NCBI GenBank assembly: GCA_019694315.1
Contig: JAIBCE010000005.1
Coordinates: 3,487-67,486, forward strand
From: Sandaracinaceae bacterium
GTDB taxonomy: Bacteria; Myxococcota_A; Polyangia; Polyangiales; Sandaracinaceae
Direction: 5' to 3'
Length of the DNA: 64,000 nt
The notes under the pieces are model-generated. The model was given only the letters and a program-made list of their open reading frames with translations, ran no database searches and was not told where the DNA came from. A program made the translations under genes and the position numbers. This document shows positions 15,440 through 30,193 of the stretch, one piece after another. Each line of letters starts with the position of its first letter. Position 1 is the first letter of the stretch.

Positions 15440-16506
15440 GCTACGGCCTCGTCCTCGTCCTCGCGCTGGCGCTCTTCGTGGTCGCGTCGATCGCGCACTA
15501 CGTGTTCTGGACGCGCCGTCTCGAGCGTCCGATGACCTACGCGCTGAGCGAGCGCCTCGAGACGCCCGACGGCGCCGCGATCGAGCTCCATCGCCTGCCG
15601 GGCGATGCGCCGACGAGCCCCATCCCCGTGCTGCTCGTGCACGGCGTGGGAATCGATCACCGCAACAACGACATGCTCCCCGAGGTCTCGCTCGCGCGTC
15701 ACCTGCGCGCGAGCGGCCGCGACGTGTGGCTCCTGCGCCTGCGGAGCGGCGGGATGTCGCGTGTGTTCAAGGACAAGAGGAAGGTGCGCTTCGCGCGCAT
15801 GGCCGAGCACGATCTGCCGCTCGGCGTGCGCGAGGTGCTCACGCGCACGGGCCAGCCGCACCTCGACTACGTGGGCTTCTCGATGGGCGGCATGCTCGCG
15901 TACGCCGCGATCGGCGCGCATCGCATCGATCCCGCGCTCCTTCGTCGCGTGGTGATCATCGGCTCGCCCGCGCGCGTGGGGCACTACGTGCCGTTCCGAC
16001 ATCTGCTCACGCGCCTGCCCGAGCCGCTCGTGCCCACGCTGCCGCTGCGTCTCGGCTCGCGCATGGTCGCGTTCGCGTCGGAGTGGATGACGACGCCCGT
16101 GCATCACCTCGTCTACAACCCGCGCAACGTGGAGCGCGGCCTCGCGGGCCCCGCGATGATGACGGTGGAGGACATCCCCGGTCCTCTCAACGTCGACTTC
16201 CTGAGCTTCATCCGCCGCGGCATCGTGCACTTCGAGGATCGCGACGTGATCGAAGGTCTCCGTCACGTGTCGATCCCGGTGCTCTTCTTCGCGGGCGAGC
16301 GTGACCGTCTCGCGCCGCCCGAGGCCGTGCGTGTGGCCTTCGACGCGTGGGGCGCCGACGCCGGCGAGGTCGACAAGCGCTTCGTGCTCCTCTCGGTGAA
16401 GGAGGGCGCGAGCGCCGACTACGGCCACGGCGATCTCGCGATCGGCCGCGCTGCCAAGCGCGACATCTTCGAGCCCATCGAGCGCTTCCTCACGCCCGCG
16501 GCGTAG
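15436..16506 (+). CDS. alpha/beta hydrolase with N-terminal membrane anchor
   Basis: The ATG at 15436 overlaps the upstream stop (ATGA). N-terminal TM (LVLVLALALFVVASIA). HG oxyanion region LLVHGVG. Nucleophile elbow GFSMGG. Confidence 0.7.
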   Translation: MSYGLVLVLALALFVVASIAHYVFWTRRLERPMTYALSERLETPDGAAIELHRLPGDAPTSPIPVLLVHGVGIDHRNNDMLPEVSLARHLRASGRDVWLLRLRSGGMSRVFKDKRKVRFARMAEHDLPLGVREVLTRTGQPHLDYVGFSMGGMLAYAAIGAHRIDPALLRRVVIIGSPARVGHYVPFRHLLTRLPEPLVPTLPLRLGSRMVAFASEWMTTPVHHLVYNPRNVERGLAGPAMMTVEDIPGPLNVDFLSFIRRGIVHFEDRDVIEGLRHVSIPVLFFAGERDRLAPPEAVRVAFDAWGADAGEVDKRFVLLSVKEGASADYGHGDLAIGRAAKRDIFEPIERFLTPAA

Positions 16507-16576
16507 CCGCACGCGCACGTCGCCTCCTGCGAGGTGACAGACAACCTCGCCCGCTCACTGTTACCCTCGCGGCGTC

Positions 16577-19500
16577 TTGGGGACGTCGTCGACCAACTTC
16601 GGCTTCCTGGTGGAGCACCACCCGCGCCTCGTGATGTTGGGGTCACAGGCCGAGCTGCTGTTCCACGTCGACCCGCCCGCCTCGATCACGAAGGTCCGCC
16701 TCCTCGCCGAGGACCTCGCGCAGCTCGCTGCCGCGCGCGCCGGCCTCTTCGTCGATCGCCGCGAAGCCCAGGTGGATCTGCTTCGGCGCCTCCGCGACAA
16801 AGGCCTCGTCACCGCGGACGTCCACGACGCCTTCCACGCGATCCGGAAGGCCGGCAACGCCGCCGCGCACGACAACGCCGGCACGAGCGGTGAGGCCCTC
16901 TCGCAGCTCCGCCTCGCGTTCGTGGTGTCGGTCTGGTTCCACCGCACGTTCTCGAAAGATCGGCTCACCTTCAAGCAGCCCGCGTTCGTCGTGCCGCGCC
17001 CGCCCGAGGACGCCGCCGCGCGTCTGCGCGCCGAGCTCTCCGCGCTGAAGAACGCGCTCGCCGTCGCGAACGCCACCGTCACCGCCACCAAGCAGACGGC
17101 CGAGCAGGCCAAGGCCGCGCGCGAGGCCCTCGAGGAGCAGCTCCGCGCGGAGCTCGACGACGCGAAGAAGAAGGCGCTCGAGGCCGACGAAGCGCGCCTC
17201 GCGGCGGAGGCCAAGGCCCAGCTCGAAGAGTCCGAGCGCCTCGCGGCGATGGCCCTCCTCGACGAGGTCGCCGCGCGCGAGGCCGCGCTCGCTGCGGATC
17301 TCGCGAAGCTCCAGGTCGCGAGCCTCGCGGCGCCCGAGCTCACCGCCGCCTTCGTCACCGCGGCCAACGACGTCACGGCCACCCTCGATCTCGACGAGGC
17401 CACCACACGCCGCCTCGTCGACGAGAAGCTCCGCGAGGCAGGCTGGGAGGTCGACAGCCAGACGCTTCGTCACGCCCTCGGCGCTCGCCCGCAGAAGGGC
17501 CGATACCTCGCGATCGCCGAGTGGCCCACGGAGAGCGGCCCTGCCGACTACGTGCTCTTCGCGGGCCTCGTGCCCCTGGCCATCGTCGAGGCCAAGCGCA
17601 GCAAGAAGAACGTGCCCGCCGTGCTCCAGCAGGCCGCGCGCTACGCGAAGGATCTGCTCGAGCTCGAGGGCCTGGACATCCCTCGCGCGGCCGACGGCGA
17701 GCCGGGCTTCCCCGAGGCCAGCCCGCCGCAGACCTCGGCGAAGAAGGCCAAGGCCGAGCACGGTCGCTTCCTCGTCCCGTTCCTCTTCGCGACGAACGGC
17801 CGGGCCTATCTGGCGCAGATCAAGGAGGCGAGCGGCATCTGGTTCCGCGACGCGCGCCGGCCCGAGAACCTCGCGCGCGCGCTCGATGGCTGGCACTCGC
17901 CGCAAGGGCTCCTCGGACTCCTGGGCCAGGACATCGCCGCCGCGAACGAGAAGCTCGAGCGCGAAGAGACTGACTATCTCGGCCTCAGGCCCTATCAGGT
18001 GCGGGCCATTCGCGCGGCCGAAGCTGCCATTGCCGAGGGCGCGCAGACAGCGCTCCTCGCGATGGCCACCGGCACGGGCAAGACGCGCACGTGCATCGGG
18101 CTCTGCTATCGCCTGCTCAAGACGGGCCGCTTCCGCCGCATCCTCTTCCTCGCGGACCGCACGGCCCTCACCACGCAGACGGAGGACGCCTTCCAGGAGG
18201 CGCGCCTCGAGCAACTGACCACCTTCGCGCAGAGCTACCAGGTCAAAGGGCCCAAGACACCCGAGGTCTCCGTCGGCGACACGAAGCTGCACATCGCCAC
18301 GGTGCAGAGCCTCGTCCGCGGGCTCTTGTACGGGCCCGACGACACGCCACCTCCGCCCGTCGACACCTACGACTGCATCGTCGTCGACGAGTGCCACCGC
18401 GGCTACACGCTCGATCGCGAGCTGTCCGAGGGGGAGCTGCTCTTCCGCGACGAGTCGGACTACCTCTCGAAGTACCGGCGGGTGCTCGAGCACTTCGACG
18501 CCGTGAAGATCGCGCTCACGGCCACGCCGGCCCTCCACACGCGGCAGATCTTCGGCGACCCGGTCTACACGTACTCGTACCGAGAGGCGGTGATCGACGG
18601 CTTCCTCGTCGATCACAGCCCGCCCACGCGCATCGTCACCGCGCTCGCGGAGGACGGCATCACGTTCAAGACGGGCGAGAAGGTCCCCGTCTACCAGCCG
18701 CGCACGCAGACGCAGCAGCTCGCGCTCCTGCCGGACGAGATCCAGCTCGAGATCGATCAGTTCCACCGCAAGGTGATCACGCGCCCGTTCAACGAGGCCG
18801 TGGCGCACGAGCTCGCCAAGCACATCGACCCGAGCCTGCCGGGCAAGACGCTCGTCTTCTGCGTGAACGATCTCCACGCGGACATGGTCGTGGACTGTCT
18901 CAAGCAGGCGTTCGTCGCGCGGTACGGCAGTGTGGAAGACGGCGCCGTCGAGAAGATCACGGGCTCGGTCGACCGCCCGCTCGAGGCCATCCGTCGCTAC
19001 CGCACGGACCGCCGGCCCTGCGTGGCCGTCACGGTGGATCTGCTGACGACCGGCGTGGACGTGCCCGAGATCGACAAGCTGGTGTTCCTGCGCCGGGTGC
19101 GGAGCCGCATCCTCTACGAGCAGATGCTCGGGCGCGCGACGCGCCTCTGTCCGGACCTGCACGGCGCGGGTCGGCCCAAGGAGGTCTTCCAGATCTTCGA
19201 CGCGGTCGATCTCTACGCGGCCCTCGCGAACGCGACGGATATGAAGCCGGTGGTCGTGGATCCGTCGCTGCGCTTCAAGGACCTGGTCGAGGATCTGAAG
19301 AGGCTGAAGGACGCCGCTCACATCGAGCACGTGCTCGGCGAGCTGGTGACGAAGCTCGCCCGCAAGGTGCGTCGTCTCGATGCGCGCATCGCCGAGCGTC
19401 TCGCGGACGAGCTCGGCCAGAGCCCCGAGGACCTGGTCCGCACGCTGCGGAGCGCGAGCCCCACCGACGCCCGAAAGCTCTGGCTGGATCACCACCCACA

Positions 19501-20128
19501 CCTCGCGGATCTGCTCGACGCGCGCCCCGCCGGCGACGGCATCGACGGTCTCTACGTCTCGCACCACGCCGACGAGGTGCGCCGCGTGGAGCAGGGCTAC
19601 GGGCCGGGGCGTCAGCGTCCGGAGGACTACCTGGATGGCTTCGCGAAGTACGTGCGCGAGCACCTGAACGACCTGCCCGCCCTGGTGGTGGTGACGCAGC
19701 GCCCCAAGGACCTGACGCGCGCGCAGCTGAAGGAGCTGCGATTGGCGCTCGACAAGGCCGGCTATCCCGAGTCCCACCTCCGCGCGGCCTGGGCGCAGCG
19801 CACGAACCAGGACATCGCCGCAAGCATCCTCGGCCACATCCGCCAGGCCGCCCTCGGCGACCCGCTCATCGACTACGACGAGCGCGTGAACCGAGCCCTC
19901 AAGAAGATCCTCGCCTCCCGCCCCTGGGACCCCACCCAGAAGAAGTGGCTCGAGCGCCTCGCCAAGCAGCTCCAGAAGGAGATCGTGGTCGACCGCGAGT
20001 CCCTCGACGCCGAAGGCAGCCTGTTCGCGGCGGAGGGCGGGTCGAAGAGGCTCGAGAAGGTGTTCGAGGGCCGGCTCGGAGAGGTTCTGTCGAATCTCAG
20101 CGAAGCCGCCTGGAGGGAGGGAGCATGA
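16577..20128 (+). CDS. hsdR: type I restriction enzyme R subunit (DUF4145-like N-terminus, coiled coil, nuclease, SF2 helicase, EcoEI_R_C-like tail)
   Basis: TTG start as in the track. N-terminal SNFGFL... module, an A/E/K-rich coiled coil, and a PD-(D/E)xK-like segment (DYVLF...IVEAKRS). Helicase motif I MATGTGKT and motif II VVDECHRG. hsdM/hsdS lie downstream. Confidence 0.85.
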   Translation: MGTSSTNFGFLVEHHPRLVMLGSQAELLFHVDPPASITKVRLLAEDLAQLAAARAGLFVDRREAQVDLLRRLRDKGLVTADVHDAFHAIRKAGNAAAHDNAGTSGEALSQLRLAFVVSVWFHRTFSKDRLTFKQPAFVVPRPPEDAAARLRAELSALKNALAVANATVTATKQTAEQAKAAREALEEQLRAELDDAKKKALEADEARLAAEAKAQLEESERLAAMALLDEVAAREAALAADLAKLQVASLAAPELTAAFVTAANDVTATLDLDEATTRRLVDEKLREAGWEVDSQTLRHALGARPQKGRYLAIAEWPTESGPADYVLFAGLVPLAIVEAKRSKKNVPAVLQQAARYAKDLLELEGLDIPRAADGEPGFPEASPPQTSAKKAKAEHGRFLVPFLFATNGRAYLAQIKEASGIWFRDARRPENLARALDGWHSPQGLLGLLGQDIAAANEKLEREETDYLGLRPYQVRAIRAAEAAIAEGAQTALLAMATGTGKTRTCIGLCYRLLKTGRFRRILFLADRTALTTQTEDAFQEARLEQLTTFAQSYQVKGPKTPEVSVGDTKLHIATVQSLVRGLLYGPDDTPPPPVDTYDCIVVDECHRGYTLDRELSEGELLFRDESDYLSKYRRVLEHFDAVKIALTATPALHTRQIFGDPVYTYSYREAVIDGFLVDHSPPTRIVTALAEDGITFKTGEKVPVYQPRTQTQQLALLPDEIQLEIDQFHRKVITRPFNEAVAHELAKHIDPSLPGKTLVFCVNDLHADMVVDCLKQAFVARYGSVEDGAVEKITGSVDRPLEAIRRYRTDRRPCVAVTVDLLTTGVDVPEIDKLVFLRRVRSRILYEQMLGRATRLCPDLHGAGRPKEVFQIFDAVDLYAALANATDMKPVVVDPSLRFKDLVEDLKRLKDAAHIEHVLGELVTKLARKVRRLDARIAERLADELGQSPEDLVRTLRSASPTDARKLWLDHHPHLADLLDARPAGDGIDGLYVSHHADEVRRVEQGYGPGRQRPEDYLDGFAKYVREHLNDLPALVVVTQRPKDLTRAQLKELRLALDKAGYPESHLRAAWAQRTNQDIAASILGHIRQAALGDPLIDYDERVNRALKKILASRPWDPTQKKWLERLAKQLQKEIVVDRESLDAEGSLFAAEGGSKRLEKVFEGRLGEVLSNLSEAAWREGA
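19861..20070 (+). repeat. direct repeat copy 1 (hsdR 3' end)
   Basis: 210 nt, nearly identical (about 7 mismatches by eye) to 21872-22081. Confidence 0.9.
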
Positions 20129-20150
20129 GCAGGGACGAGGTCGGGGCACG

Positions 20151-21176
20151 ATGACGACACCCACAACGTGGATGGTTCGGGCGGGTCGAGGCGGAGATCA
20201 GGTCGACGCCTTCCTGGCAGATGGCGTCGTCGGCATCGGGTACGGCGCGTCCGAGTTCAAGGGGCTGCCGCCGACACTCACGCGCGAGGCGATCGTGGCC
20301 GGAATGAAGGCTGCAAATCCCCACTGGTCCACGGCCAAGCTCGCCGTGATCTCGGGGCAACTCGTGCGCTTCGTGACGGAGATCAAGGCCGGGGACCGCA
20401 TCGTCACGGGCGACCCCGAGACGCGCACGTACTTCGTCGGTCGTGCCAGCGGGGAGCTCCGCTGGGAGGGTGGCAAGCCGCTGCCGATTCGGCGAGGCGT
20501 GAAGTGGACCGGGCGCGTGGCACGCGACGCCCTCAGCGTCTCCACGCTCAACACACTCGGCGCGATTCAGACCCTCTTCCGCATCTCCGACGAGGTCGCG
20601 GACGAGCTGGTCAAGTTCGAGCGCCCCATCACCGAAGAAGCTCCGCCACCTGCGCCCAAGGCTGAGCAGACGGCTCCCGCCGATGTCGTCCCGGCCGACC
20701 TGCTCGGCGCGCCGGAGCGGGCCAAGAGCTTCATCGACGACATGATCAACCGACTGGACTGGGACGAGCTCCAGGACCTCGTCGCAGGCGTGCTCCGGGC
20801 GATGGGCTACAAGACACGCGTGTCCACGCCCGGTCCGGATCGGGGAGTCGACATCTTCGCGTCACCCGACGGCCTCGGTCTGCAGGAGCCGCGCATCTTC
20901 GTCGAGGTGAAGCACCGCCAGGCCGCGATGGGAGCCCCCGACCTCCGCACGTTCCTTGGCGGTCGCAAGGCCGGCGACAAGTGTCTCTACGTGAGCACGG
21001 GCGGCTTCAAGAAGGACGCGCACTACGAGGCCGACCGATCGACGATTCCGATCACGCTGGTGACTCTTCCCGTGCTGCGAGACCTCCTCCTGGAGCACTA
21101 CGAGCGATTGGACGAGGAGACGAGAGCGCTCGTTCCTCTTCGGCGTGTTTACCTACCCTTCGATCCCAACGACTGA
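20151..21176 (+). CDS. Mrr-like restriction endonuclease (PD-(D/E)xK C-terminal domain, PUA/EVE-like N-terminal domain tentative)
   Basis: ATG at 20151. C-terminal Mrr_cat-like pattern: LQDLVAGVLRAMGY, GVDIFAS, IFVEVKH, YVSTGGF. The N-terminal WMVRAGRGG...GIGYG...AGDRIV pattern is common in restriction-endonuclease-annotated proteins. Confidence 0.7.
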   Translation: MTTPTTWMVRAGRGGDQVDAFLADGVVGIGYGASEFKGLPPTLTREAIVAGMKAANPHWSTAKLAVISGQLVRFVTEIKAGDRIVTGDPETRTYFVGRASGELRWEGGKPLPIRRGVKWTGRVARDALSVSTLNTLGAIQTLFRISDEVADELVKFERPITEEAPPPAPKAEQTAPADVVPADLLGAPERAKSFIDDMINRLDWDELQDLVAGVLRAMGYKTRVSTPGPDRGVDIFASPDGLGLQEPRIFVEVKHRQAAMGAPDLRTFLGGRKAGDKCLYVSTGGFKKDAHYEADRSTIPITLVTLPVLRDLLLEHYERLDEETRALVPLRRVYLPFDPND

Positions 21177-21198
21177 ACCACGCACAGGAGATCCACCG

Positions 21199-21840
21199 AT
21201 GTCAGGGGGCACGAACAAGGCGACTGCGAAGAAGCCCCGCGCACGCAAGCGCGGCAAGGGCATCTTCTGCCTCGAAGGGGATTGGTGGAACGACCTCAAC
21301 CAATCCGGCAGCGTGAAGCCCATGCTGGACCTGATCTCCGCCGGGGCAGACATCGCGGTTCCGTCGGTCCACCGCGACGTCGCGACGCGCGATGAGCTCG
21401 AGTTCTACCTGCGGAAGTGGGTCCAGGGTCGCTACAAGACGTATCCCCTCCTGTGTCTCGCGTTCCACGGCAGCGAAGGCGCGCTTCACCTCAGCGACGG
21501 GCGAAAGGCTGAGTCGACCGTCACGCTCGACGAGCTCGCCGAGCTCCTCGACGGGAAGTGCCACGGCCGCATCATCCACTTCGACGGTTGCTCCACGGTG
21601 GTCGGCGACGTTCGCCACCTCAAACGCTTCCTGCGCCAGACGGGCGCCCTGGCGGTCACCGGATTCACGAACGACGTGCCCTGGCTCGACGCCGCGGCCT
21701 TCGACATCCTGCTCTTTGCGACCTTCCAGCAGCAGGCCCTCACGCGCGGAGGGATGAAGGCAGTGAAGCGTCGCGTGTTCACGGAGCTCCGCGGCATGGC
21801 CAGAGAGCTCGGCTTCCGGATGGAGATCCGGCCCGAATGA
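21199..21840 (+). CDS. small (213 aa) protein with minimal CHAT/caspase-like His-Cys signature (tentative)
   Basis: ATG at 21199 with AGGAG 9 nt upstream. LLCLAFHGSEG (His90-Gly) and RIIHFDGCST (Cys131) lie 41 residues apart after hydrophobic strands. The following GALAVTGFTNDVPWLDAAAFDILLF resembles the CHAT C-terminal motif. Confidence 0.45.
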   Translation: MSGGTNKATAKKPRARKRGKGIFCLEGDWWNDLNQSGSVKPMLDLISAGADIAVPSVHRDVATRDELEFYLRKWVQGRYKTYPLLCLAFHGSEGALHLSDGRKAESTVTLDELAELLDGKCHGRIIHFDGCSTVVGDVRHLKRFLRQTGALAVTGFTNDVPWLDAAAFDILLFATFQQQALTRGGMKAVKRRVFTELRGMARELGFRMEIRPE

Positions 21841-22151
21841 ACCGCACGAGCAAACTGGCCGCCCTGGGGCACCCGCTCATCGACTACGACGAGCGCGTGA
21901 ACCGAGCCCTCGGGAAGATCCTCGCCTCCCGCCCCTGGGACCCCACCCAGAAGAAGTGGCTCGAGCGCCTCGCCAAGCAGCTCCAGAAGGAGATCGTGGT
22001 CGACCGCGAGTCCCTGGACGCCGAGGGGAGCCTGTTCGCGGCGGAGGGCGGGTCGAAGAGACTCGAGAAGGTGTCCGAGGGTCGACTTGACGAGGTACTG
22101 TCCGACCTCACCGGCAATGTCTGGCGGGCGGCGGAAGGAGCAGAAGCATGA
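21837..22151 (+). pseudogene. duplicated HsdR C-terminal (EcoEI_R_C-like) fragment; intact 104-aa ORF that could still be expressed
   Basis: The ATG at 21837 overlaps the upstream stop (ATGA). The translation (PLIDYDERVNRALGKILASRPWDPTQKKWLERLAKQLQKEIVVDRESLDAEGSLFAAEGGSKRLEKV...) is almost identical to the last ~90 aa of HsdR. Confidence 0.65.
21872..22081 (+). repeat. direct repeat copy 2 (hsdR 3' end)
   Basis: 210 nt, nearly identical to 19861-20070, offset 2011 nt. Confidence 0.9.
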
Positions 22152-22280
22152 TGCTTCACCGCGCGCTCACCGTGCAAAGGACAGGCCGATGACCAAGACA
22201 CAGAGCCACGTTGCCCTCGGCCACATTCTCGTCGTCGCCCCCCAGAGGGTCTCAGCCCCAGCGACGAGTACCTCGAGGCC

Positions 22281-23099
22281 ATGGCCTACGACCTCGTTGG
22301 CGCGGAACGCCCAAACGCGCTCGCGGAGCTCTTGAGGCACGCCGAGGGCTACTATCCGGTACTGCGGGAACTCCGCCGTATCGCGGCCCCGGGCAAACCA
22401 ATGTTCAAGGGAATCGACGTCGCGAGTGCCCGGGCGATCATTGTCGACGTCTTGCGCGCGCTCCTGGCGCGAGACGTGAGGGCCGTCGCCCCCAGCGCGC
22501 AGGTGCTCCTGTCCACGGATCCTCTCCTTGAGCAACTGAGCTGTGTTGATGGCACCTTCATTGCTGGAACGGCCTACGGCGCCCACCCTCTCAACCCCAC
22601 GACCTTCATTCCGCTGTCGGCCTTCCACACCTACCTTCTCGCGGAGAAGCGTGGCGAGTTCATGGCAATAGTGTCGGCTCTCGGGGCATCTGAACTGGCC
22701 CTCTCGGATGCCCAGTCGTCGAGGGAGCGATCCGGCGCGGACGCAGGCCTCCGCGAGCTGACGGGCCAAGCTCAGCTCGGTGTCAAGGCCGGACAGGGTT
22801 CGGGCAGCGCCGCAGCGTTTGACCTCTCCGCGCACTTCGGCCCTCCGCGGGGACCCATCGGGGTGCCGGACGGCATGCGTTGGGTTCGGCGGGAACCGAT
22901 GTGGCAGCGCATGATCGACGAGAGGCTCCAGCGAAACATCTTGTCTCTCGAGGTGGAGTTCACGTACGCGTCGGACTTCTCAATCAACGCTTCGCTCGCC
23001 GCGGTGCTCGAAGAAGTCGGCATCGGACTCGGGGGCACGTTCGAAGCAAGCGAAACGCTTCGCCAGACCTACCGCGTCGTCTTCCACGAGCGCACGTGA
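22281..23099 (+). CDS. hypothetical protein, 272 aa, no family recognised
   Basis: ATG at 22281 with GAGG 3 nt upstream. The frame shows coding-like third-position GC bias, but with more A/T-ending codons than the flanking core genes. Helical N-terminal half, Gly/Ser-rich linker, beta-like C-terminal half (SLEVEFTYASDFSINASL...). Confidence 0.6.
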   Translation: MAYDLVGAERPNALAELLRHAEGYYPVLRELRRIAAPGKPMFKGIDVASARAIIVDVLRALLARDVRAVAPSAQVLLSTDPLLEQLSCVDGTFIAGTAYGAHPLNPTTFIPLSAFHTYLLAEKRGEFMAIVSALGASELALSDAQSSRERSGADAGLRELTGQAQLGVKAGQGSGSAAAFDLSAHFGPPRGPIGVPDGMRWVRREPMWQRMIDERLQRNILSLEVEFTYASDFSINASLAAVLEEVGIGLGGTFEASETLRQTYRVVFHERT

Positions 23100-23218
23100 G
23101 CATCGCGAGCTCTCGGCACGAGACGCGCTTCGTGCGATCGTCTCGGCCTCGCATCACCAGACGCCAGCACACCGTTTGTGATCGTCGGTGCTCGTGTGAC
23201 GCGCCCCCGCCAGAGGCA

Positions 23219-23239
23219 GCCCGTCCAAGCCGGACGGGC
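23219..23239 (+). terminator. stem-loop downstream of the 272-aa gene
   Basis: GCCCGTCC-AAGCC-GGACGGGC: 8-bp GC stem with a 5-nt loop, 120 nt after the stop. No U tract. Confidence 0.35.
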
Positions 23240-23582
23240 GGACGACCGGGATCGACCGCCACGCCGTTGGGCTCGCGAAGGGGTCGCGACGCGCGACGGC
23301 GCAGGCGATCGACACCGTGATGACGGCGACCTACTTCGAGGTGGGGCCGTCGGATCGTCGAGGATGGGCAGCGGGGGGCCGAACGTGCGGGCTACGGGAC
23401 GCTGCTCCTCGGTCTGCGAGCGGGGAACCCACCGGGTCTGGGACTTCGTCGTTTCGTCGTTGCCCGCGAGGTAGCTCGCCGTGCGATCGTCGGGGGACCG
23501 AGTGAGCACGCAATTCCACACCATCGGTCGCAGTCTCGTGTTGCTCGAGATCGGCACGCCGCTTCGCGCGCTCGATCAAGGC

Positions 23583-24365
23583 ATGAGCAAGCCCATCCTC
23601 TTCGAGCTCGAGGGACCGGACGGGCCTGCGCATTGGGTCGTCAAGCCTCGGAGTCTCGATCGGCGTGGCGGTGACGGTCTCGTGTGCGAGGTCGCCGCTG
23701 CGGACATCGCCGTCGCCTTGGGTCTCCGGGTTCCAGCGATGGGGATGCTGGAGTTCCCGAGCGTGCCGCTCGAGGTCGAGACCTCCGAGCTCGGCCATCG
23801 GGTCGCGGAGGTCTACCGACGAGACGCGGGCGGGACAGCGTTCTGCTCGCGCTTCATCGAGGGCGGCGTCCACGCGGTGAGAGGGATGTTCGACGACCTC
23901 CGCTCTGTGCCGCTCGAGATGCAGGAGGATGCCGTCCGACTCTTCGCCCTCGACGTGTTGCTCCGACACTACGATCGAAGACCCGGCAATCCGAACCTGC
24001 TCGTCCACGAGGATCGCCTCGTGGTCATCGACCACGGGCACGCGTTCCACGGCATCGAGCAGGTGACGGAAGAGGGGCTCTCGAAGTTCGCTGACACCGA
24101 CCAAGACCAGGCCGCGCTCGCCGACCACGTCTGCGCGTCGGTGGCGGCCCGCGATCGCTACGAACACGTGTTCGACGACGTCCTCGCCCGTGTTCGTGCC
24201 CTCGACGACACGACGCTCGACCGCCTCGCGTCGGCCTGGCCGGACGCGTTGGATCGCTCGCCTGACGGCACCCCCTCGGGTATGCGATCGTCCGTCGTCG
24301 CTGCCCTGCGAGCCAGGCGCGACGCGTTCCCGTCCCTCTTGAGGTCTGTCCGTGCCGCCCTCTAA
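23583..24365 (+). CDS. HipA-like / PI3-4-kinase-fold protein kinase
   Basis: ATG at 23583. Catalytic-loop-like LLRHYDRRPGNPNLLV and metal-binding-like VVIDHGHAF, as in the HipA_C family. Confidence 0.55.
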   Translation: MSKPILFELEGPDGPAHWVVKPRSLDRRGGDGLVCEVAAADIAVALGLRVPAMGMLEFPSVPLEVETSELGHRVAEVYRRDAGGTAFCSRFIEGGVHAVRGMFDDLRSVPLEMQEDAVRLFALDVLLRHYDRRPGNPNLLVHEDRLVVIDHGHAFHGIEQVTEEGLSKFADTDQDQAALADHVCASVAARDRYEHVFDDVLARVRALDDTTLDRLASAWPDALDRSPDGTPSGMRSSVVAALRARRDAFPSLLRSVRAAL

Positions 24366-25179
24366 AGCCGAATACCGGATCTTCTCCGCGAGCGCCGACC
24401 CCCTCGGGGAGGAGCGCTACCCGCTGGCGTTGGTCCACTGGGACGGGACGGAGCTCCGGTATGCGGCGCGTGATCGTGTGCCCAGCGCTCTGGAGAAGGA
24501 GGAGCGTGCGCTCGCTCGTGTTCTTCGCGCGATGCGTCGCCGTGTACGCGAGCTCCCGGCGACGCAGCTCGACATGGGCCTCGACACGATCTTCGACGTC
24601 CGCGCCGGTGATGGCGGGGCGACGGCGTGGTCGACGAAGCGGATCGCGATGACGCGTGACGCTGCGGATCACTTCTCGCGGCTCGTCTCGGACCTGCACC
24701 TCGCACAGCTCCGCGACGCGGCTTCGTCCATCGGGCGCGCCGAGGTGGTCGACGCGGTGCACACCCTCGGGACGCTGTTGGCGAAGACGCACCGGAACGT
24801 TCACCCCGATCACACGGTGCACGAGTTCGATCAGCTGCGATCGCCCATGTCCTGGCTCAACGGCTCCTGGGTGCACACGGTGCCCCTCGTCGTGTCGTCG
24901 ACCGTGGGCGCTCACGAGGCGGTCAGGAAGGTGGCGGCGACTCTCGAGCTCGCCGTGCCCCGCAAGCATCGCCTCGTCGTCGCGTACCCGACGCCGGCGG
25001 ACGACTCGGTCGGACGCGAGCTGCTGCGCGGCGTGGCTCATCTCGCGACGAACAATCCGCCGGAGGACGGCGACACGGCTCGCGTTCGGGGGGTCGCGCT
25101 TCCGCTCACGGCGGACGACGAGATCGACACGTCCGCGCTGCAGACGCTCGTGCTCGCCGAGCTTCGCACCGCGCCCTGA
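24352..25179 (+). CDS. DUF3037-like protein (tentative), partner of the HipA-like kinase
   Basis: The GTG at 24352 overlaps the kinase gene by 14 nt. The N-terminal YRIFSASADPLGEERYPLALVHWDG resembles the DUF3037 N-terminal pattern. Assigned from memory of the family and its known pairing with HipA-like kinases. Confidence 0.4.
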   Translation: MPPSKAEYRIFSASADPLGEERYPLALVHWDGTELRYAARDRVPSALEKEERALARVLRAMRRRVRELPATQLDMGLDTIFDVRAGDGGATAWSTKRIAMTRDAADHFSRLVSDLHLAQLRDAASSIGRAEVVDAVHTLGTLLAKTHRNVHPDHTVHEFDQLRSPMSWLNGSWVHTVPLVVSSTVGAHEAVRKVAATLELAVPRKHRLVVAYPTPADDSVGRELLRGVAHLATNNPPEDGDTARVRGVALPLTADDEIDTSALQTLVLAELRTAP

Positions 25180-25249
25180 TTCGTCGCCGTCCGCGGGTCG
25201 ATCTTCGCGCCGCGAAGCGTGGGGTTCGTGCGATCGTCCGGGCCGTCCG

Positions 25250-26698
25250 ATGACCACCACCAACGACATCGTTCAGAAGCTCTGGTCGCTCTGTCACGTC
25301 CTTCGGGACGATGGGATCACGTACCACCAGTACGTGACGGAGCTGACGTGGCTGCTCTTCCTCAAGATGGCCAAGGAGACGAACCGGGAGGAGCAGCTGC
25401 CCAAGGGGTATCGGTGGGATGACCTGACGCAGCTCGATGGGGTGCCGCTCCTCACGTTCTACCGGCAGCTCCTCCTGCACCTCGGCACGGCGTCGGGGCC
25501 GAAGGGGCCGTCGAAGCGGGTGCAGGCGATCTTCTCGAACGCGGCGACCTCCATGAAGGAGCCGCGGAACCTCAAGAAGCTCGTCACCGACATCGACGCC
25601 CTCGACTGGTACTCCGCCAAGAGCGAGGGCCTGGGCGACCTCTACGAAGGCCTGCTCGAGAAGAACGCGAGCGAGAAGAAGTCCGGCGCGGGGCAGTACT
25701 TCACGCCGCGGCCACTCATCGACGCGATGGTCGAGGTCGTCCAGCCGCAGCCCAAGGAGCGCGTCGAGGACCCGGCCGCGGGCACCGCGGGCTTCCTCAT
25801 CGCCGCGGACCGCTACATCAAGGCGCACTCGAACGACCTCTTCGATCTCGACGAGGCCACGGCGCGCTTCCAGCGGCAGAAAGCGTTCTACGGCGTCGAG
25901 CTCGTGCCCGACACGCACCGCCTCGCGCTCATGAACCTGCTCCTCCACGGCATCGACAGCGACCTCGAGCTCGGCGACGCGCTCTCGAACCTCGGCAAGG
26001 ACCTGCCCAAGGCGAACGTCATCCTCACGAACCCGCCCTTCGGCACCAAGAAGGGCGGAGGCCTGCCCACGCGCGATGACTTCACCTTCCCCACGAGCAA
26101 CAAGCAGCTCGCCTTCCTCCAGCACATCTACCGCGGCCTCGAGCCCGGCGGCCGCGCGGCGGTGGTGCTGCCCGACAACGTGCTCTTCGAGGAGAACGTT
26201 GGGACGAAGATCCGCGAGGACCTGATGGAGAAGTGCGATCTCCACACCATCCTCCGCCTGCCCACCGGCATCTTCTACGCGCAGGGCGTGAAGACGAACG
26301 TGCTCTTCTTCACGCGCGGCGAGCACGGCAAGGATCGCGGCCAGACCAAGGCCGTGTGGGTCTACGACATGCGCGCGAACATGCCGAGCTTCGGCAAGCG
26401 CACACCGCTGGGCCCCGAGCACTTCGAGCCGTTCATCAAGGCCTTCGGCAAGAACCCGTACGGCCAGAGCAAGCGCAAGGACGAGGGCGAGGAGGGCCGC
26501 TTCCGGAAGTTCACGCGCGACGAGATCAGGAAGCGCGGCGACAACCTCGACATCAGCTGGCTCAAAGACGAGAACGCGACCTCGCACGACGACCTCGGCG
26601 AGCCCGAGGAGATCGCCACCGAGATCATGACGAAGCTCCAGCTCGCCATGGACGAGATCGAGTCCCTCCAACGAGTGCTACGGGGGGAGGAGTCGTGA
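25250..26698 (+). CDS. hsdM: type I R-M N6-adenine DNA methyltransferase subunit
   Basis: ATG at 25250. HsdM_N-like IVQKLWSLCHVLRDDGI. SAM motif DPAAGTAGFL. Catalytic NPPFG. Confidence 0.9.
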   Translation: MTTTNDIVQKLWSLCHVLRDDGITYHQYVTELTWLLFLKMAKETNREEQLPKGYRWDDLTQLDGVPLLTFYRQLLLHLGTASGPKGPSKRVQAIFSNAATSMKEPRNLKKLVTDIDALDWYSAKSEGLGDLYEGLLEKNASEKKSGAGQYFTPRPLIDAMVEVVQPQPKERVEDPAAGTAGFLIAADRYIKAHSNDLFDLDEATARFQRQKAFYGVELVPDTHRLALMNLLLHGIDSDLELGDALSNLGKDLPKANVILTNPPFGTKKGGGLPTRDDFTFPTSNKQLAFLQHIYRGLEPGGRAAVVLPDNVLFEENVGTKIREDLMEKCDLHTILRLPTGIFYAQGVKTNVLFFTRGEHGKDRGQTKAVWVYDMRANMPSFGKRTPLGPEHFEPFIKAFGKNPYGQSKRKDEGEEGRFRKFTRDEIRKRGDNLDISWLKDENATSHDDLGEPEEIATEIMTKLQLAMDEIESLQRVLRGEES

Positions 26699-28387
26699 GC
26701 GACAGCTTCGAACTGCAGCACCACCCACTGAACATCGACTCCCCCCCAGAGGGGTGGCACGTGATGGCCATTCGCGCGGTGCTCACCGAGGCCCAACCCG
26801 GCTACGCGTCGGGGGGAGCATGGCCGAGACTCGTCAGGCCTCATTCACTTGCGTCCGATGAACGTGACCACGGACGGGGAGATCGATCTAACGGACGTTC
26901 GAAGCGTTGAGGCCACTGGGGACCAGCGCCGGATCGGACCTGGGGAGATCCTCTTCAACAACACCAACAGCCCTGCCCTCGTCGGCAAGACGGCGCTTGT
27001 TCGGAGCGGCCCCCTCCGGGCGTTCTCGAATCACATGACCCGGCTGGTTACGAGTCCGGACGTCGCGCCGGGCTTCTTGGCCTATCAGCTTCAGCACTTG
27101 TTCAAGTCGGGCTACTTTCGGCAGTTGTGCAAGAAGCACGTGAATCAGGCGAGCATCGCTACCACCACCCTCTTGGACTCCGTCCCCGTTCTGGTCCCCG
27201 ACAGGCCGGAACAGGATCGCATCGTCGCCAAGCTCGACGCGCTGCGGGCACGCAGTCGTGGCGCGAGGGAGGCGCTCGACGCGGTGCCCGCGCTGCTCGA
27301 CCGGCTGCGTCAGTCCATCCTCGCCGCCGCGTTCCGAGGCGACCTCACGGCCGACTGGCGCGAAGCGAACCCCGACGTCGAGCCCGCGTCCGAGCTCCTG
27401 AAGCGCATCCGCATCGAGCGCCGCAAGCGCTGGGAGGAGGCCGAGCTCGCGAAGATGGTCGCCAAGGGCAAGCCCCCCAAGGACGACCGCTGGAAGTCGA
27501 AGTACGTCGAGCCCGAGCCCGTCGACGAGAGCGACCTGCCGGAGTTGCCCGAGGGCTGGTGCTGGGCGAGCGTCGAGGGAGTGTGTGACCTGCAGCTTGG
27601 GCAGCAGCGTTCCCCAGAGCACGCTGCAGCCGAAGTGACTCTTCCCTACGTGCGCGCCGCGAACATCACCTGGACCGGGCTGGACCTCTCCGACGTGAAG
27701 GAGATGGGCTTCCCGGATCCCGAACGCTATCGTCTACGCGTCGGCGATGTCCTGCTCAGTGAGGCGTCCGGGAGCGCTACGGAAGTAGGAAAGCCAGCGA
27801 TCTGGCGCGGCGAGATCCCCAATTGCTGCTACCAGAAGACGCTTCTGCGTGCTCGACCGTTCGAATCCACGATGGGGAGTGAATGGCTCCATCTGTGTTT
27901 CCTCGCTGACGCCATCCTCGGGCGATTTGCAGCGATGGCTCCAGGAGTCGGCATCCTGCATCTCACAGCTGACCGAATGAGCTCGTGGCCAGTTCCGATG
28001 GCGCCGGTCGACGAGCAGACACGCCTCGTCGAAAGCGTCCGAAGCGCTTTGGCTACTGTGGCCGCGTTGGAAGAGACCGCCGCCAACCTCGGGGCGTCGA
28101 CCGCGGCTCTTGACGCGTCGGCGCTCGCGAAGGCCTTCCGCGGCGAGCTGCTGAGTCCGCTATCGCGCGAAGAGGAGGCGTACTCGCTCGGGGGCGCGGA
28201 CGAGGCCGAGGTCCTTGCGTTCGTCCGTCGCGTCATCGAGGAGGACGGTGACATCGAAAGTGGGCTCGTCCACAGTCTCCACATGGTCGGGGCTGCTGGA
28301 GCGGATAAGGTCGAGGCCGAGCGGCGTCGGTTCTTCAAGGAGCGGGGGATGCGGGTTCCGCGGATGAAGGGCGGCGCACAGGAGTGA
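26695..28387 (+). pseudogene. hsdS: type I R-M specificity subunit, reading frame broken at a G6 tract (26811-26816)
   Basis: The GTG at 26695 overlaps the hsdM stop (GTGA). The N-terminal 39 codons (..PPEGWHVMAIRAVLTEAQPGYASG) continue in the -1 frame as EHGRDSSGLIHLRPMNVTTDGEIDL... if one G is removed. The rest is a typical two-TRD HsdS with a central coiled coil. Confidence 0.8.
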
Positions 28388-28414
28388 GATGCGGTGAGTC
28401 GAGGAGAATGGTGC

Positions 28415-29212
28415 TCACGAGCCCCGCTCCCCTCGCCAGCCGCATTGATCGCGCACCCCGCACCGGGTGCACCGGGGTTTCTCCTCCAGGCAGATGCCCT
28501 TCGCGAGCCCGAACTCCTCCGTCTCGACCTGACCGTACGCGACGAGCACCCGGTCCACGCGCCGCATGCTTGCGCCCGCCTCCGACGCCATGCGTTGTCC
28601 GATCTGGATGGCGCGGAAGTACCGGTTCGTGTCGTCCACGAGGCGCAGACGATGGAAGATCCGCATGATCACGCGGTCTGGTTTCAGCACGTTGAGACCC
28701 AGGTCCGTCATGAAGTGGTAGACCGTGATGCCGCCGAGGTACTCGAACTCCGCTTCGAGGTCCTCCTTGAGCACGAGCAGGTCCGAAAGCGCGCCGTCGC
28801 CGATGCGGTCGCGAAGGTATGCGGAGAACGACCCGCACCTCGTGACGATCGCGGCCACTGTCTTTGCGTTCGCGATGCAGGCCTCGACTTTCCGGCGATG
28901 CCCGATCATCGCCGAGTCGTCGACGATGCGGTCGACGTCTCCAGGTCCATACTCGCGGGCAACTCTCCAATCCCCCAGGTGTTTCAGGATGGTTTCTCGT
29001 TTTGCGGTGACCGTCGCGGCCTTGAAGCCGGAGTAGAAGACGACCATCACCAGCTTCTGGAACAACGCATCGTCCGAGTCGTCGAGCCCTGCCCGCCCAA
29101 CCTCTCGCTCGATAGTCGCCTCGATGTCGGGCTGGGACGTTCGGCACTCCTCGATCAGACTGCGCTCGATCGCACGAAAGATGTCGCCCACGTTCGTGTC
29201 CCTGGCCGTCAT
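28415..29212 (-). CDS. Tag-like (3-methyladenine DNA glycosylase I family) HhH glycosylase with C-terminal C-x6-C-x2-C-x5-C motif
   Basis: 265 aa. LFQKLVMVVFYSGFKAATVTAKRETI...IGHRRKVEACIANAK and YLGGITVYHFMTDLGL align by eye with E. coli Tag segments. The C-terminal CLEEKPRCTRCGVRDQC matches EndoIII/MutY Fe-S cluster spacing. Confidence 0.6.
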   Translation of the reverse strand: MTARDTNVGDIFRAIERSLIEECRTSQPDIEATIEREVGRAGLDDSDDALFQKLVMVVFYSGFKAATVTAKRETILKHLGDWRVAREYGPGDVDRIVDDSAMIGHRRKVEACIANAKTVAAIVTRCGSFSAYLRDRIGDGALSDLLVLKEDLEAEFEYLGGITVYHFMTDLGLNVLKPDRVIMRIFHRLRLVDDTNRYFRAIQIGQRMASEAGASMRRVDRVLVAYGQVETEEFGLAKGICLEEKPRCTRCGVRDQCGWRGERGS

Positions 29213-29428
29213 AGGTCGACTCTACGCGCGATCACCGTTTCGGCGCGACCTGAACGTGCGCCTCTGACCTCTGCCGCCGGCGTGCGGCGGATGCGATCGC
29301 CTCGGCGTGCATCGTCGCGGTGGCCGGGCCCTCACCCTAGCCCTCTCCCGCCTGCGGGAGAGAGGACTCTGCGGCGCGGCCACCGACGTCACGGTCTCTC
29401 TCCAAGCAGGATGATCTCCGAAGAGCGG

Positions 29429-29570
29429 GCAGCTGGCTGCTCTGCTGGTGGTCGTCGGACCGCTGGTGGGGCAACTGGCTGCTCTGCAGGGGGTCGCTCG
29501 ACCGTGACCTGGGGTAGCTGGCTGCTCGGGTGTGACGACGCGACACATGTGGCGGGCAGCTGGGCGATCT
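29429..29570. repeat. degenerate ~42-43 nt periodic repeat (3-4 copies) in a divergent promoter region
   Basis: GCAGCTGGCTGCTCTGCT (29429), GCAACTGGCTGCTCTGCA (29471), GTAGCTGGCTGCTCGGG (29514) and GGCAGCTGGGCG (29556). Confidence 0.5.
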
Positions 29571-29587
29571 CGAAGGAGCTCGTCGAG

Positions 29588-30193
29588 ATGCGCGAGCTCC
29601 CGGTCACCGACCTCACCTCGCTCGTGAACGGCAAGCGCGTGGACGCGACCGTGCTCGCGGGCCTGCGCGGCAGCGTCGGGTTCCGCAACCAGGTCACCGA
29701 CGTCGTGCAGCTCACTGCCATCTTCCGTCGGCACTGGGAGAGCGTGCGCGCGACGACGCCGGTCACGATCGACGACCTCGAGCGCGCCGAGACGCTCGCG
29801 ACGAAGCTCACGCAGCTGCTCGGGATGCGCGAGCAAGGCAGCCTCGAGGCGTCGGGCGTCGGCGAGATGCGCCAGCGCGCGTTCTCGAAGTTCGTCCACA
29901 CCTACGATCAGCTGCGCCGCGCGATGACCTTCCTCCGCTGGGACGAGGGCGACGTCGACTCCGTGATCCCCTCGCTCTGGGCCGGTCGCGGTGGCCGCGG
30001 CAAGCGCACCGAGGTCGAGGTCGCCAAGGACGAGACCAAGAGTGGCGAGACCAAGAGTGGCGAGACCAAGAGTGGCGAGACCAAGAGTGGCGAGACCAAG
30101 AAGGCAGAGCCCAAGAGTGGCGAGCCCAAGAGTGACGAGCCGCCGATGGACGACCTCCGGGGTCTTCCGCCGCCGTTCATCGAGGGGGTCTGA
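29588..30193 (+). CDS. hypothetical protein with C-terminal ETKSG pentapeptide repeats
   Basis: ATG at 29588 with AAGGAG 9 nt upstream. 201 aa, with a K/E-rich repetitive tail. Confidence 0.55.
   Translation: MRELPVTDLTSLVNGKRVDATVLAGLRGSVGFRNQVTDVVQLTAIFRRHWESVRATTPVTIDDLERAETLATKLTQLLGMREQGSLEASGVGEMRQRAFSKFVHTYDQLRRAMTFLRWDEGDVDSVIPSLWAGRGGRGKRTEVEVAKDETKSGETKSGETKSGETKSGETKKAEPKSGEPKSDEPPMDDLRGLPPPFIEGV
30032..30091 (+). repeat. perfect 15-nt tandem repeat x4 (GAGACCAAGAGTGGC), followed by degenerate copies to ~30140
   Basis: Read directly from the sequence. In frame; encodes (ETKSG)4 and then ETKKAEPKSGEPKSDEP. Confidence 0.9.

Follow-up and report, generated by a model that had tools for sequence, protein, structure and literature searches.

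A Stand-Alone DUF6642 Protein with a Predicted Caspase/CHAT Fold in a Type I Restriction–Modification Operon of a Sandaracinaceae Bacterium

Within a contig of a Sandaracinaceae bacterium, we analyzed a stretch of 64,000 nucleotides (nt), referred to here as the window, in which a small gene of the Pfam family DUF6642 (PF20347) lies inside a type I restriction–modification (R-M) operon and encodes a predicted stand-alone cysteine peptidase of the caspase/CHAT fold. The gene occupies positions 21199–21840 of the + strand: An ATG at 21199 and a TGA at 21838–21840 delimit an open reading frame (ORF) for 213 amino acids (aa), and a Shine–Dalgarno-like AGGAG, read from the sequence, stands at 21186–21190, 8 nt 5′ of the start codon. 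The GC content at codon positions 1/2/3 amounts to 0.65/0.45/0.87 and is similar in the adjoining genes, in agreement with the original prediction, made from the DNA letters alone, of a 213-aa ORF with an AGGAG element and good coding bias. In comparisons with relatives at 82% and 73% nucleotide identity, codons with synonymous-only differences outnumber those with non-synonymous differences by 73:22 and 76:46, respectively: The gene is under purifying selection. The 213-residue ORF is a real, conserved gene, and the identical protein has already been recorded from a Sandaracinaceae metagenome-assembled genome (MAG). Immediately 5′ of it lie hsdR (16577–20128, 1183 aa), assigned to the type I restriction subunits by its match to PDB entry 3h1t (E 5.6e-33), and a gene for a 341-aa Mrr-like nuclease (20151–21176; Mrr_cat, E 5.9e-22; PADLOC model PDC-S02, E 4e-73); 22 nt separate hsdR from the Mrr gene and again 22 nt the Mrr gene from the DUF6642 gene. 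A 272-aa ORF, a HipA_2-like gene, a 275-aa ORF, hsdM and hsdS follow, all of these genes being on the + strand. The DUF6642 gene is part of a tightly packed same-strand block, with hsd genes of a single type I system on either side of it. A consensus scan, which may not apply to Myxococcota, detected no sigma-70-type promoter in 16000–29000 and, from the DUF6642 stop codon to the 272-aa ORF, no terminator-like site on the + strand.

The identification of the protein as a peptidase is based on its predicted structure. An AlphaFold2 model calculated from 38 homologues reached a mean confidence score (pLDDT) of 91.3 and a predicted TM score (pTM) of 0.87 and displays a canonical alternation of strands and helices. 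A Foldseek search of the PDB with this model yielded 199 matches at E≤1e-3, of which the top 50 are all caspase or CHAT structures with TM scores up to 0.61: SAVED-CHAT (8tl0; E 2e-7, TM 0.60) ranks first, and the Craspase TPR-CHAT, the CHAT domain of DdvA, caspase-4, CED-3 and caspases-3/-6/-7/-8/-9 are among the others. PDB searches by sequence, both with the single protein and with a family profile, returned noise only. Among the viral models of BFVD, the named matches are caspases, metacaspases and clostripain. The best match there is an uncharacterized 320-aa protein (A0A8S5MXG5, Myoviridae sp.; E 9e-10, TM 0.65), and judging from this model comparison a relative of the DUF6642 fold may be encoded by a phage.

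In clan CD peptidases, strands 3 and 4 carry the catalytic His and Cys, respectively, at their C-terminal ends. The motifs noted at the outset are all present in the 213-aa protein, namely LLCLAFHGSEG with His90-Gly91, RIIHFDGCST with Cys131, and GALAVTGFTNDVPWLDAAAFDILLF. In the model, His90-Gly91 (21466–21471) directly follows strand 3 (residues 84–88) and Cys131 (21589–21591) directly follows strand 4 (residues 125–128), both strands being hydrophobic. The His-then-Cys order and the spacing of 41 residues, which had been proposed to match the caspase-hemoglobinase fold, fit it well: In caspase-3 and in Craspase the spacing is 42, in DdvA 45. Among 150 representatives with mutual identity of at most about 50%, His90 and Gly91 are each retained in 147 of 149 and Cys131 in 149 of 150, a degree of conservation which argues that the motif signature is not a chance occurrence. 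Neither a non-protease fold nor variability of His90 and Cys131, the two outcomes named beforehand as speaking against the prediction, was encountered: The structural matches are confined to caspase folds, and the dyad is most highly conserved. By its model, the protein has the caspase-hemoglobinase (clan CD) fold with His and Cys placed as in clan CD, and we regard it as very probably a clan CD cysteine peptidase in which Cys131 would serve as the nucleophile and His90 as the general base.

Only one further residue, Glu26 at the end of strand 1, is as conserved as His90, Gly91 and Cys131. It belongs to a GIFCLEGxW motif that comprises strand 1 and the ensuing loop (GIFCLEGDW in the window protein, 21259–21285) and holds the candidate S1-pocket residues; here, Glu26 is kept in 144 of 145, Trp29 in 138 of 145 and Cys24 in 132 of 143 sequences, and an acidic residue is common at position 28 of the family. 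In caspases, legumain and paracaspases, the S1 determinants reside in the loop after strand 1. Since clan CD enzymes place their specificity residues there, Glu26 together with the acidic residue 28 may line the S1 pocket and select a basic P1 residue (Arg/Lys). Preceding this motif is a tail of 20 residues (21199–21258) that the AlphaFold2 model assigns low confidence and that is indeed as basic as initially described, containing eight Lys/Arg and no Asp/Glu. Family-wide, the tail is short (median, only 7 aa), and Lys/Arg make up 31% of the eight residues before strand 1 compared to 14% of the proteins as a whole.

The protein is a clear member of DUF6642: The Pfam model matches residues 21–208 with profile positions 3–180 of 182 (E 2.4e-22; 79.9 bits vs a cut-off of 27), and all 150 representatives match it as well. 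A profile search of 1.84 billion cluster representatives retrieved 1,658 clusters (50% identity) at E≤1e-3, of which 1,102 remain at E≤1e-10. Almost every one of the 150 best representatives is 185–210 aa long and consists of the domain alone, and in a hunt for fusions the few longer relatives revealed no Pfam domain other than DUF6642; the lengths of these relatives support the earlier notion of a protease core that would stand by itself. A scan of one genome per species counted 306 carriers, and the best 80 loci stem mostly from Planctomycetota, Verrucomicrobiota, Acidobacteriota, Gemmatimonadota, Myxococcota and Cloacimonadota; in a metagenome scan, the closest relative of the window protein did not exceed 52% identity. 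Some relatives already carry the NCBI label “DUF6642 family protein”, and a literature search on DUF6642 and PF20347 found no paper mentioning the family. DUF6642 is known as a Pfam family for which we found no published fold or function and which is not flagged by PADLOC v2.

We then compared the family with CHAT domains and Peptidase_C14, to which the original prediction had pointed. The fold predicted by AlphaFold2 and the Foldseek matches uphold a CHAT/caspase-like identity; membership in the corresponding Pfam families does not follow, as the window protein matches neither CHAT (PF12770), even at E≤1, nor Peptidase_C14 (PF00656). The designation “CHAT member” was rejected for this reason, the Pfam CHAT threshold not being reached. 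Among the 150 relatives, sub-threshold CHAT matches occur in 15 (best E 4.2e-4), making CHAT the commonest secondary family ahead of DUF4347 (8), Peptidase_C13 (5) and DUF6345 (4), and Peptidase_C14 is not among the top 25. When the family profile was aligned by hhalign with a profile of 120 bona fide PF12770 proteins, the two ran in register over residues 66–196 with modest statistics (P 1.4e-3, probability 17%): FHG falls on the CHAT “ATHG” and GC on “LSACeT”, positions which we checked on Craspase chains as His585 (“ILCHG”) and Cys627 (“ILGACET”), and the post-Cys segment “GA..V.G...V.W.D.AA” falls on “AGA...LW.VdD.AT”, as had been surmised for this stretch. Against the single caspase-3 sequence, the probability was negligible (2.7%), with FHG aligned to SHG. 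A second search with the 150-sequence profile gave DUF6642 proteins for all of the best 120 matches listed.

Because the Pfam CHAT and Peptidase_C14 models remain unmatched, DUF6642 is best described as a minimal sister family of CHAT domains and not as a CHAT member. The CHAT proteases (Craspase TPR-CHAT/Csx29, SAVED-CHAT and DdvA; 8d9f, 8tl0 and 8rot) are its best structural matches and share with it the order His-Gly…Cys at a spacing of 41–45 residues as well as, in the statistically modest profile alignment, an in-register “HG-x-G-l-L-D-g...lt..el” and the post-Cys “GA..v.g...V.W.d.aA”. They differ from it considerably in size and architecture: While a CHAT domain of ~290 aa is part of a protein of 650–1000 aa and usually lies C-terminal to repeats or a sensor, DUF6642 proteins have ~190 aa, no TPR, SAVED or transmembrane sensor, a conserved GIFCLEGxW strand-1 motif of their own and no link to CRISPR or cyclic-oligonucleotide (cOA) signaling. 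Many proteins annotated as CHAT are themselves just 135–200 aa long (P0302, P0319, P0316 and others), some of them on contigs of 765 kb and 5 Mb; further minimal or split CHAT proteins may exist besides DUF6642.

The surroundings of the gene in the window bear marks of recombination. A direct repeat of 287 nt, found by repeat search and alignment, is present in two copies of 89% identity on the + strand: Copy A (19846–20132) is the 3′ end of the intact hsdR, and copy B (21857–22143), which begins 17 nt past the DUF6642 stop codon, is an orphan hsdR 3′-end remnant that still reads as an HsdR C-terminal peptide. The copies enclose a 2,011-bp unit of the Mrr and DUF6642 genes, and the repeat marks recombination between two diverged hsdR 3′ ends or type I loci. 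Downstream, positions 22281–25179 form a slot that is occupied here by the 272-aa ORF (22281–23099), the HipA_2-like kinase gene (23481–24365; PADLOC PDC-M66A) and the 275-aa ORF overlapping it (24352–25179), which has no family match. The 272-aa ORF appears coding-like (GC at third codon positions 0.78) but matches nothing in Pfam, PADLOC, NCBIfam or PHROGs, and none of the retrieved loci contains a homologue. The slot is followed by hsdM (25250–26698; EcoKI family by its match to the EcoKI M protein, PDB 2ar0, E 1.3e-165) and hsdS (26695–28387; 54% identity to a Methylase_S protein in locus L022), whose apparent GTG start at 26695 overlaps the hsdM stop and whose reading frame is shifted in a G6 run (26811–26816) that could be phase-variable or else point to a pseudogene or to an error of the assembly. 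Beyond hsdS, a putative ORF at 28394–30193 would encode a tandem (ETKSG)n repeat at about 30000–30130 and then a K/E/P-rich tail, and long – strand ORFs overlap it.

Two related loci display other versions of this operon. In L093, the order is Mrr–DUF6642–hsdM with 6 nt between DUF6642 and hsdM (proteins 78% and 76% identical) and the slot is empty (1736–1743); in L092, which is 90% identical, the order is Mrr–DUF6642–NACHT-like ATPase–hsdM, the ATPase gene filling the slot (1086–2978). In a search against all loci, the window Mrr was found only in these two, at 76% identity in L093 and at 99% over the part present in L092. Judging from these orders, this operon version keeps Mrr and DUF6642 together as a conserved pair and has a slot of variable content between DUF6642 and hsdM. 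A 75-nt stretch of the window (23416–23490) matches the region just 5′ of hsdM in L092. The orders in L092 and L093 favor an arrival of the HipA-containing module together with its own hsdR remnant. The pair of HipA_2-like gene and 275-aa ORF recurred, in a search against all loci, in just one other Sandaracinaceae MAG (L005, 5307–6975; 45–46% identity), ~1 kb 5′ of a DUF6642 gene and next to BREX brxL/pglZ.

To place the operon in a wider frame, we examined the neighborhoods of the homologues. Flanking-ORF clustering of 90 loci and two Pfam censuses, the first of 42 and the second of 148 adjacent genes, uncovered no universal partner gene of DUF6642, only clade-level synteny, and the gene often has divergent and convergent genes on its flanks. 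Embedding in or adjacency to type I R-M systems was observed in at least six lineages with a mutual identity of 36–50%. Besides L093, the gene stands between or beside same-strand hsd genes in five loci: hsdM–DUF6642–hsdS, where stop and start codons overlap and DUF4268, an OLD-like ATPase and a Peptidase_M78/DUF4411 pair come next (L060); hsdM–hsdS′–DUF6642–Nmad3 (L103); hsdM–hsdS–DUF6642 with a gap of 15 nt (L122, of which L119 is a short duplicate contig without hsd genes); hsdM–hsdS–DUF3644–104-aa ORF–DUF6642–OLD-like ATPase (L153); and hsdM–hsdS–hsdR–104-aa ORF–DUF6642 (L159). In L022, HsdS is encoded close to DUF6642 on the opposite strand. Each R-M-linked lineage has closer relatives (60–75%) in loci where tblastn finds no hsd gene. 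Elsewhere, homologues have BREX brxL/pglZ, Wadjet jetD, a HEPN protein gene, OLD-like ATPase genes or an Abi gene as neighbors, and a second, unrelated Mrr nuclease (HARE-HTH plus Mrr_cat) is encoded 5′ of DUF6642 on a Planctomycetaceae contig (L014).

These neighborhoods bear on two points raised earlier. The co-insertion with a nuclease in an R-M locus had been called unusual: The Mrr neighbor between hsdR and hsdM is indeed there, and the protein itself is no orphan oddity and belongs to a large Pfam family. Co-occurrence with Mrr, which had been proposed for analysis, holds for L092, L093 and the independent case in L014 and does not extend across the family; the Mrr partnership is confined to close relatives and this one independent case, and the link to type I R-M systems is the more general one. 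Two further companions recur. The 104-aa ORF stands directly 5′ of DUF6642 in the otherwise unrelated L153 (5545–5859) and L159 (5595–5909), its N-terminus being extremely basic in L153. TPR proteins of ~275 aa that are orthologous to each other (63–70% identical) are encoded directly 5′ of DUF6642, on the same strand, in four loci of Verrucomicrobiia (L017, 2832–3659; L021, 6401–7249; L027, 7169–7963; L032, 6786–7607), an arrangement that resembles a split TPR-CHAT architecture.

Caspase-like executioners are an established part of bacterial immunity, with Craspase, SAVED-CHAT/PCaspase, type IV Thoeris and gasdermin activation as examples. To our knowledge, all characterized bacterial immune caspase-like proteases are large or coupled to a dedicated sensor. 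The Peptidase_C14 caspases of type IV Thoeris and type III-B systems (PCaspase) share with DUF6642 the caspase fold and a defence-island context; moreover, PsCaspase has its catalytic Cys at C129 (bioRxiv 10.1101/2024.10.24.620036), near residue 130 as in the case of Cys131, and the Arg specificity of two characterized bacterial executioner caspases (same reference) demonstrates for them the basic P1 preference that is possible for DUF6642. These executioners rely on a C-terminal ligand-binding domain or an activating cleavage and on a TIR or SAVED-CHAT partner, whereas DUF6642 has no extra domain, no TIR neighbor and no PF00656 match. In its position between same-strand hsd genes, DUF6642 resembles the genes embedded in R-M systems, that is, PrrC, TgvAB and the HEC/PDC candidates: The window Mrr and the HipA_2-like gene match PDC-S02 and PDC-M66A, DUF3644, which neighbors DUF6642 in L153, is a domain of HEC-08 (bioRxiv 10.1101/2024.01.29.577857), and a nuclease of the modification-dependent type inside a type I system has its counterpart in TgvAB, a type IV nuclease pair shown to work in such a location (PMC11411939). 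Known R-M-embedded effectors are nucleases, RNases or ATPases, in contrast to the protease predicted here, and a literature search found no paper on a caspase-like protease as an R-M-embedded gene.

Taken together, we lean toward the DUF6642 protein of the window being a sensor-less clan CD cysteine endopeptidase that acts as an R-M-embedded defence accessory and is a candidate anti-phage factor, a reading we hold with restrained confidence. New defence genes have been predicted with success from their embedding in type I R-M, BREX and DISARM operons (bioRxiv 10.1101/2024.01.29.577857). A defence-related role as such falls slightly short of an even chance in our judgement, and any particular trigger is much more doubtful than that. 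Mechanistically, Cys131 and His90 would catalyze the cleavage of peptide bonds, and the enzyme would serve the R-M/Mrr module by cutting host or phage proteins when restriction is challenged. Because there is no sensor domain, its activity is probably under the control of oligomerization, of a partner protein or of the basic tail at its own N-terminus. A bolder version, which we consider improbable, would cast DUF6642 as a caspase-like executioner for which the type I R-M complex (plus Mrr in the present operon) serves as the sensor: It would be silent as long as the complex is intact, be released by an anti-restriction protein (Ocr, ArdA or Stp-like), cut after basic residues and abort the infection. 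The template for this idea is PrrC, an embedded effector that the R-M complex keeps silent until an anti-restriction factor triggers it (PMC2610378). If the idea held true, a restriction system would for the first time have a protease as its “guard”, and no known immune caspase would be smaller than DUF6642.

Several observations weigh against the preferred assignment as a defence peptidase. In addition to the unmatched CHAT and Peptidase_C14 models and the statistically weak sequence link to CHAT, the window protein matches no NCBIfam model and, at E≤1, no model of PADLOC-DB v2.0.0, a library that predates type IV Thoeris. The 148 adjacent genes spread over 135 Pfam families, and most homologues lie outside recognizable defence contexts; the commonest neighbor family is a DEAD-box helicase in syntenic Phycisphaerales loci, and many neighbors are metabolic. 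By tblastn, plasmids contributed a single match, a Brevibacterium record annotated “DUF6642 family protein”, and the phage collection contributed none; PHROGs gave no match for the protein either. Given the frameshift in hsdS, the R-M system of the window may not be intact. The peptidase and defence roles are predictions, and so are the Arg/Lys specificity and the functions assigned to the tail and to Glu26.

Part of this evidence is shared by the main rival explanation, which sees in DUF6642 a clan CD protease that works in the cell outside defence, for example in the processing or turnover of a host substrate, and that is present in R-M loci by incidental hitch-hiking. Housekeeping neighbors and clade-level synteny are what most loci display (Phycisphaerales with the DEAD-box helicase, Prosthecobacter with PIN-PhoH and AP_endonuc_2, Cloacimonadota with Peptidase_S51), and the missing universal partner and the near-absence from plasmids and phages accord with this explanation as well. 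Hitch-hiking has difficulty, however, in accounting for two independent Mrr adjacencies and for R-M embedding or adjacency in at least six lineages that are far from one another, where stop and start codons often overlap or nearly abut. Furthermore, R-M-linked loci number ~9 of ~165 versus ~0.5 by chance; this expectation is a rough estimate and not a computed control, in which well under 1% of random genes would have a type I locus within 5 kb. We rate the cellular explanation as unlikely, though still to be taken seriously.

Clearly less probable is a proteolytic regulator that trims or degrades HsdR and/or Mrr against self-restriction, for instance in a new host or upon lapsed modification, and thus provides built-in restriction alleviation. 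In the EcoKI family, to which the hsdM of the window belongs, restriction alleviation operates via ClpXP proteolysis of HsdR; moreover, DUF6642 shares the transcription unit of hsdR, hsdM and hsdS in several lineages, and the locus carries signs of recombinational shuffling. Yet most DUF6642 members have no R-M neighbor, and nothing in the data links HsdR or Mrr to the protease as substrates. A caspase fold that is no peptidase at all (be it a scaffold, a pseudo-enzyme, or a hydrolase or transferase whose substrate is not a peptide) is most improbable. Some caspase-fold domains are scaffolds, and the literature search on the family found activity reported for no DUF6642 protein, but the retention of the dyad at 98–99% over a very diverse family argues for catalysis, and the characterized clan CD enzymes with a His/Cys dyad that we know of are peptidases or transamidases.

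With DUF6642 taken as a defence peptidase, a sensor-less caspase core that recurs in restriction operons is a variation on the theme of bacterial immune caspase-like proteins and not a new kind of system. The analysis provides the family with a predicted fold and a testable catalytic hypothesis centered on H90, C131 and E26, and the list of R-M-embedded defence genes gains a candidate that PADLOC v2 does not flag. A family of more than 1,600 clusters that consists of little beyond the catalytic core raises the question of how such a protease stays off, and also whether restriction systems may serve as infection sensors for proteolytic effectors.

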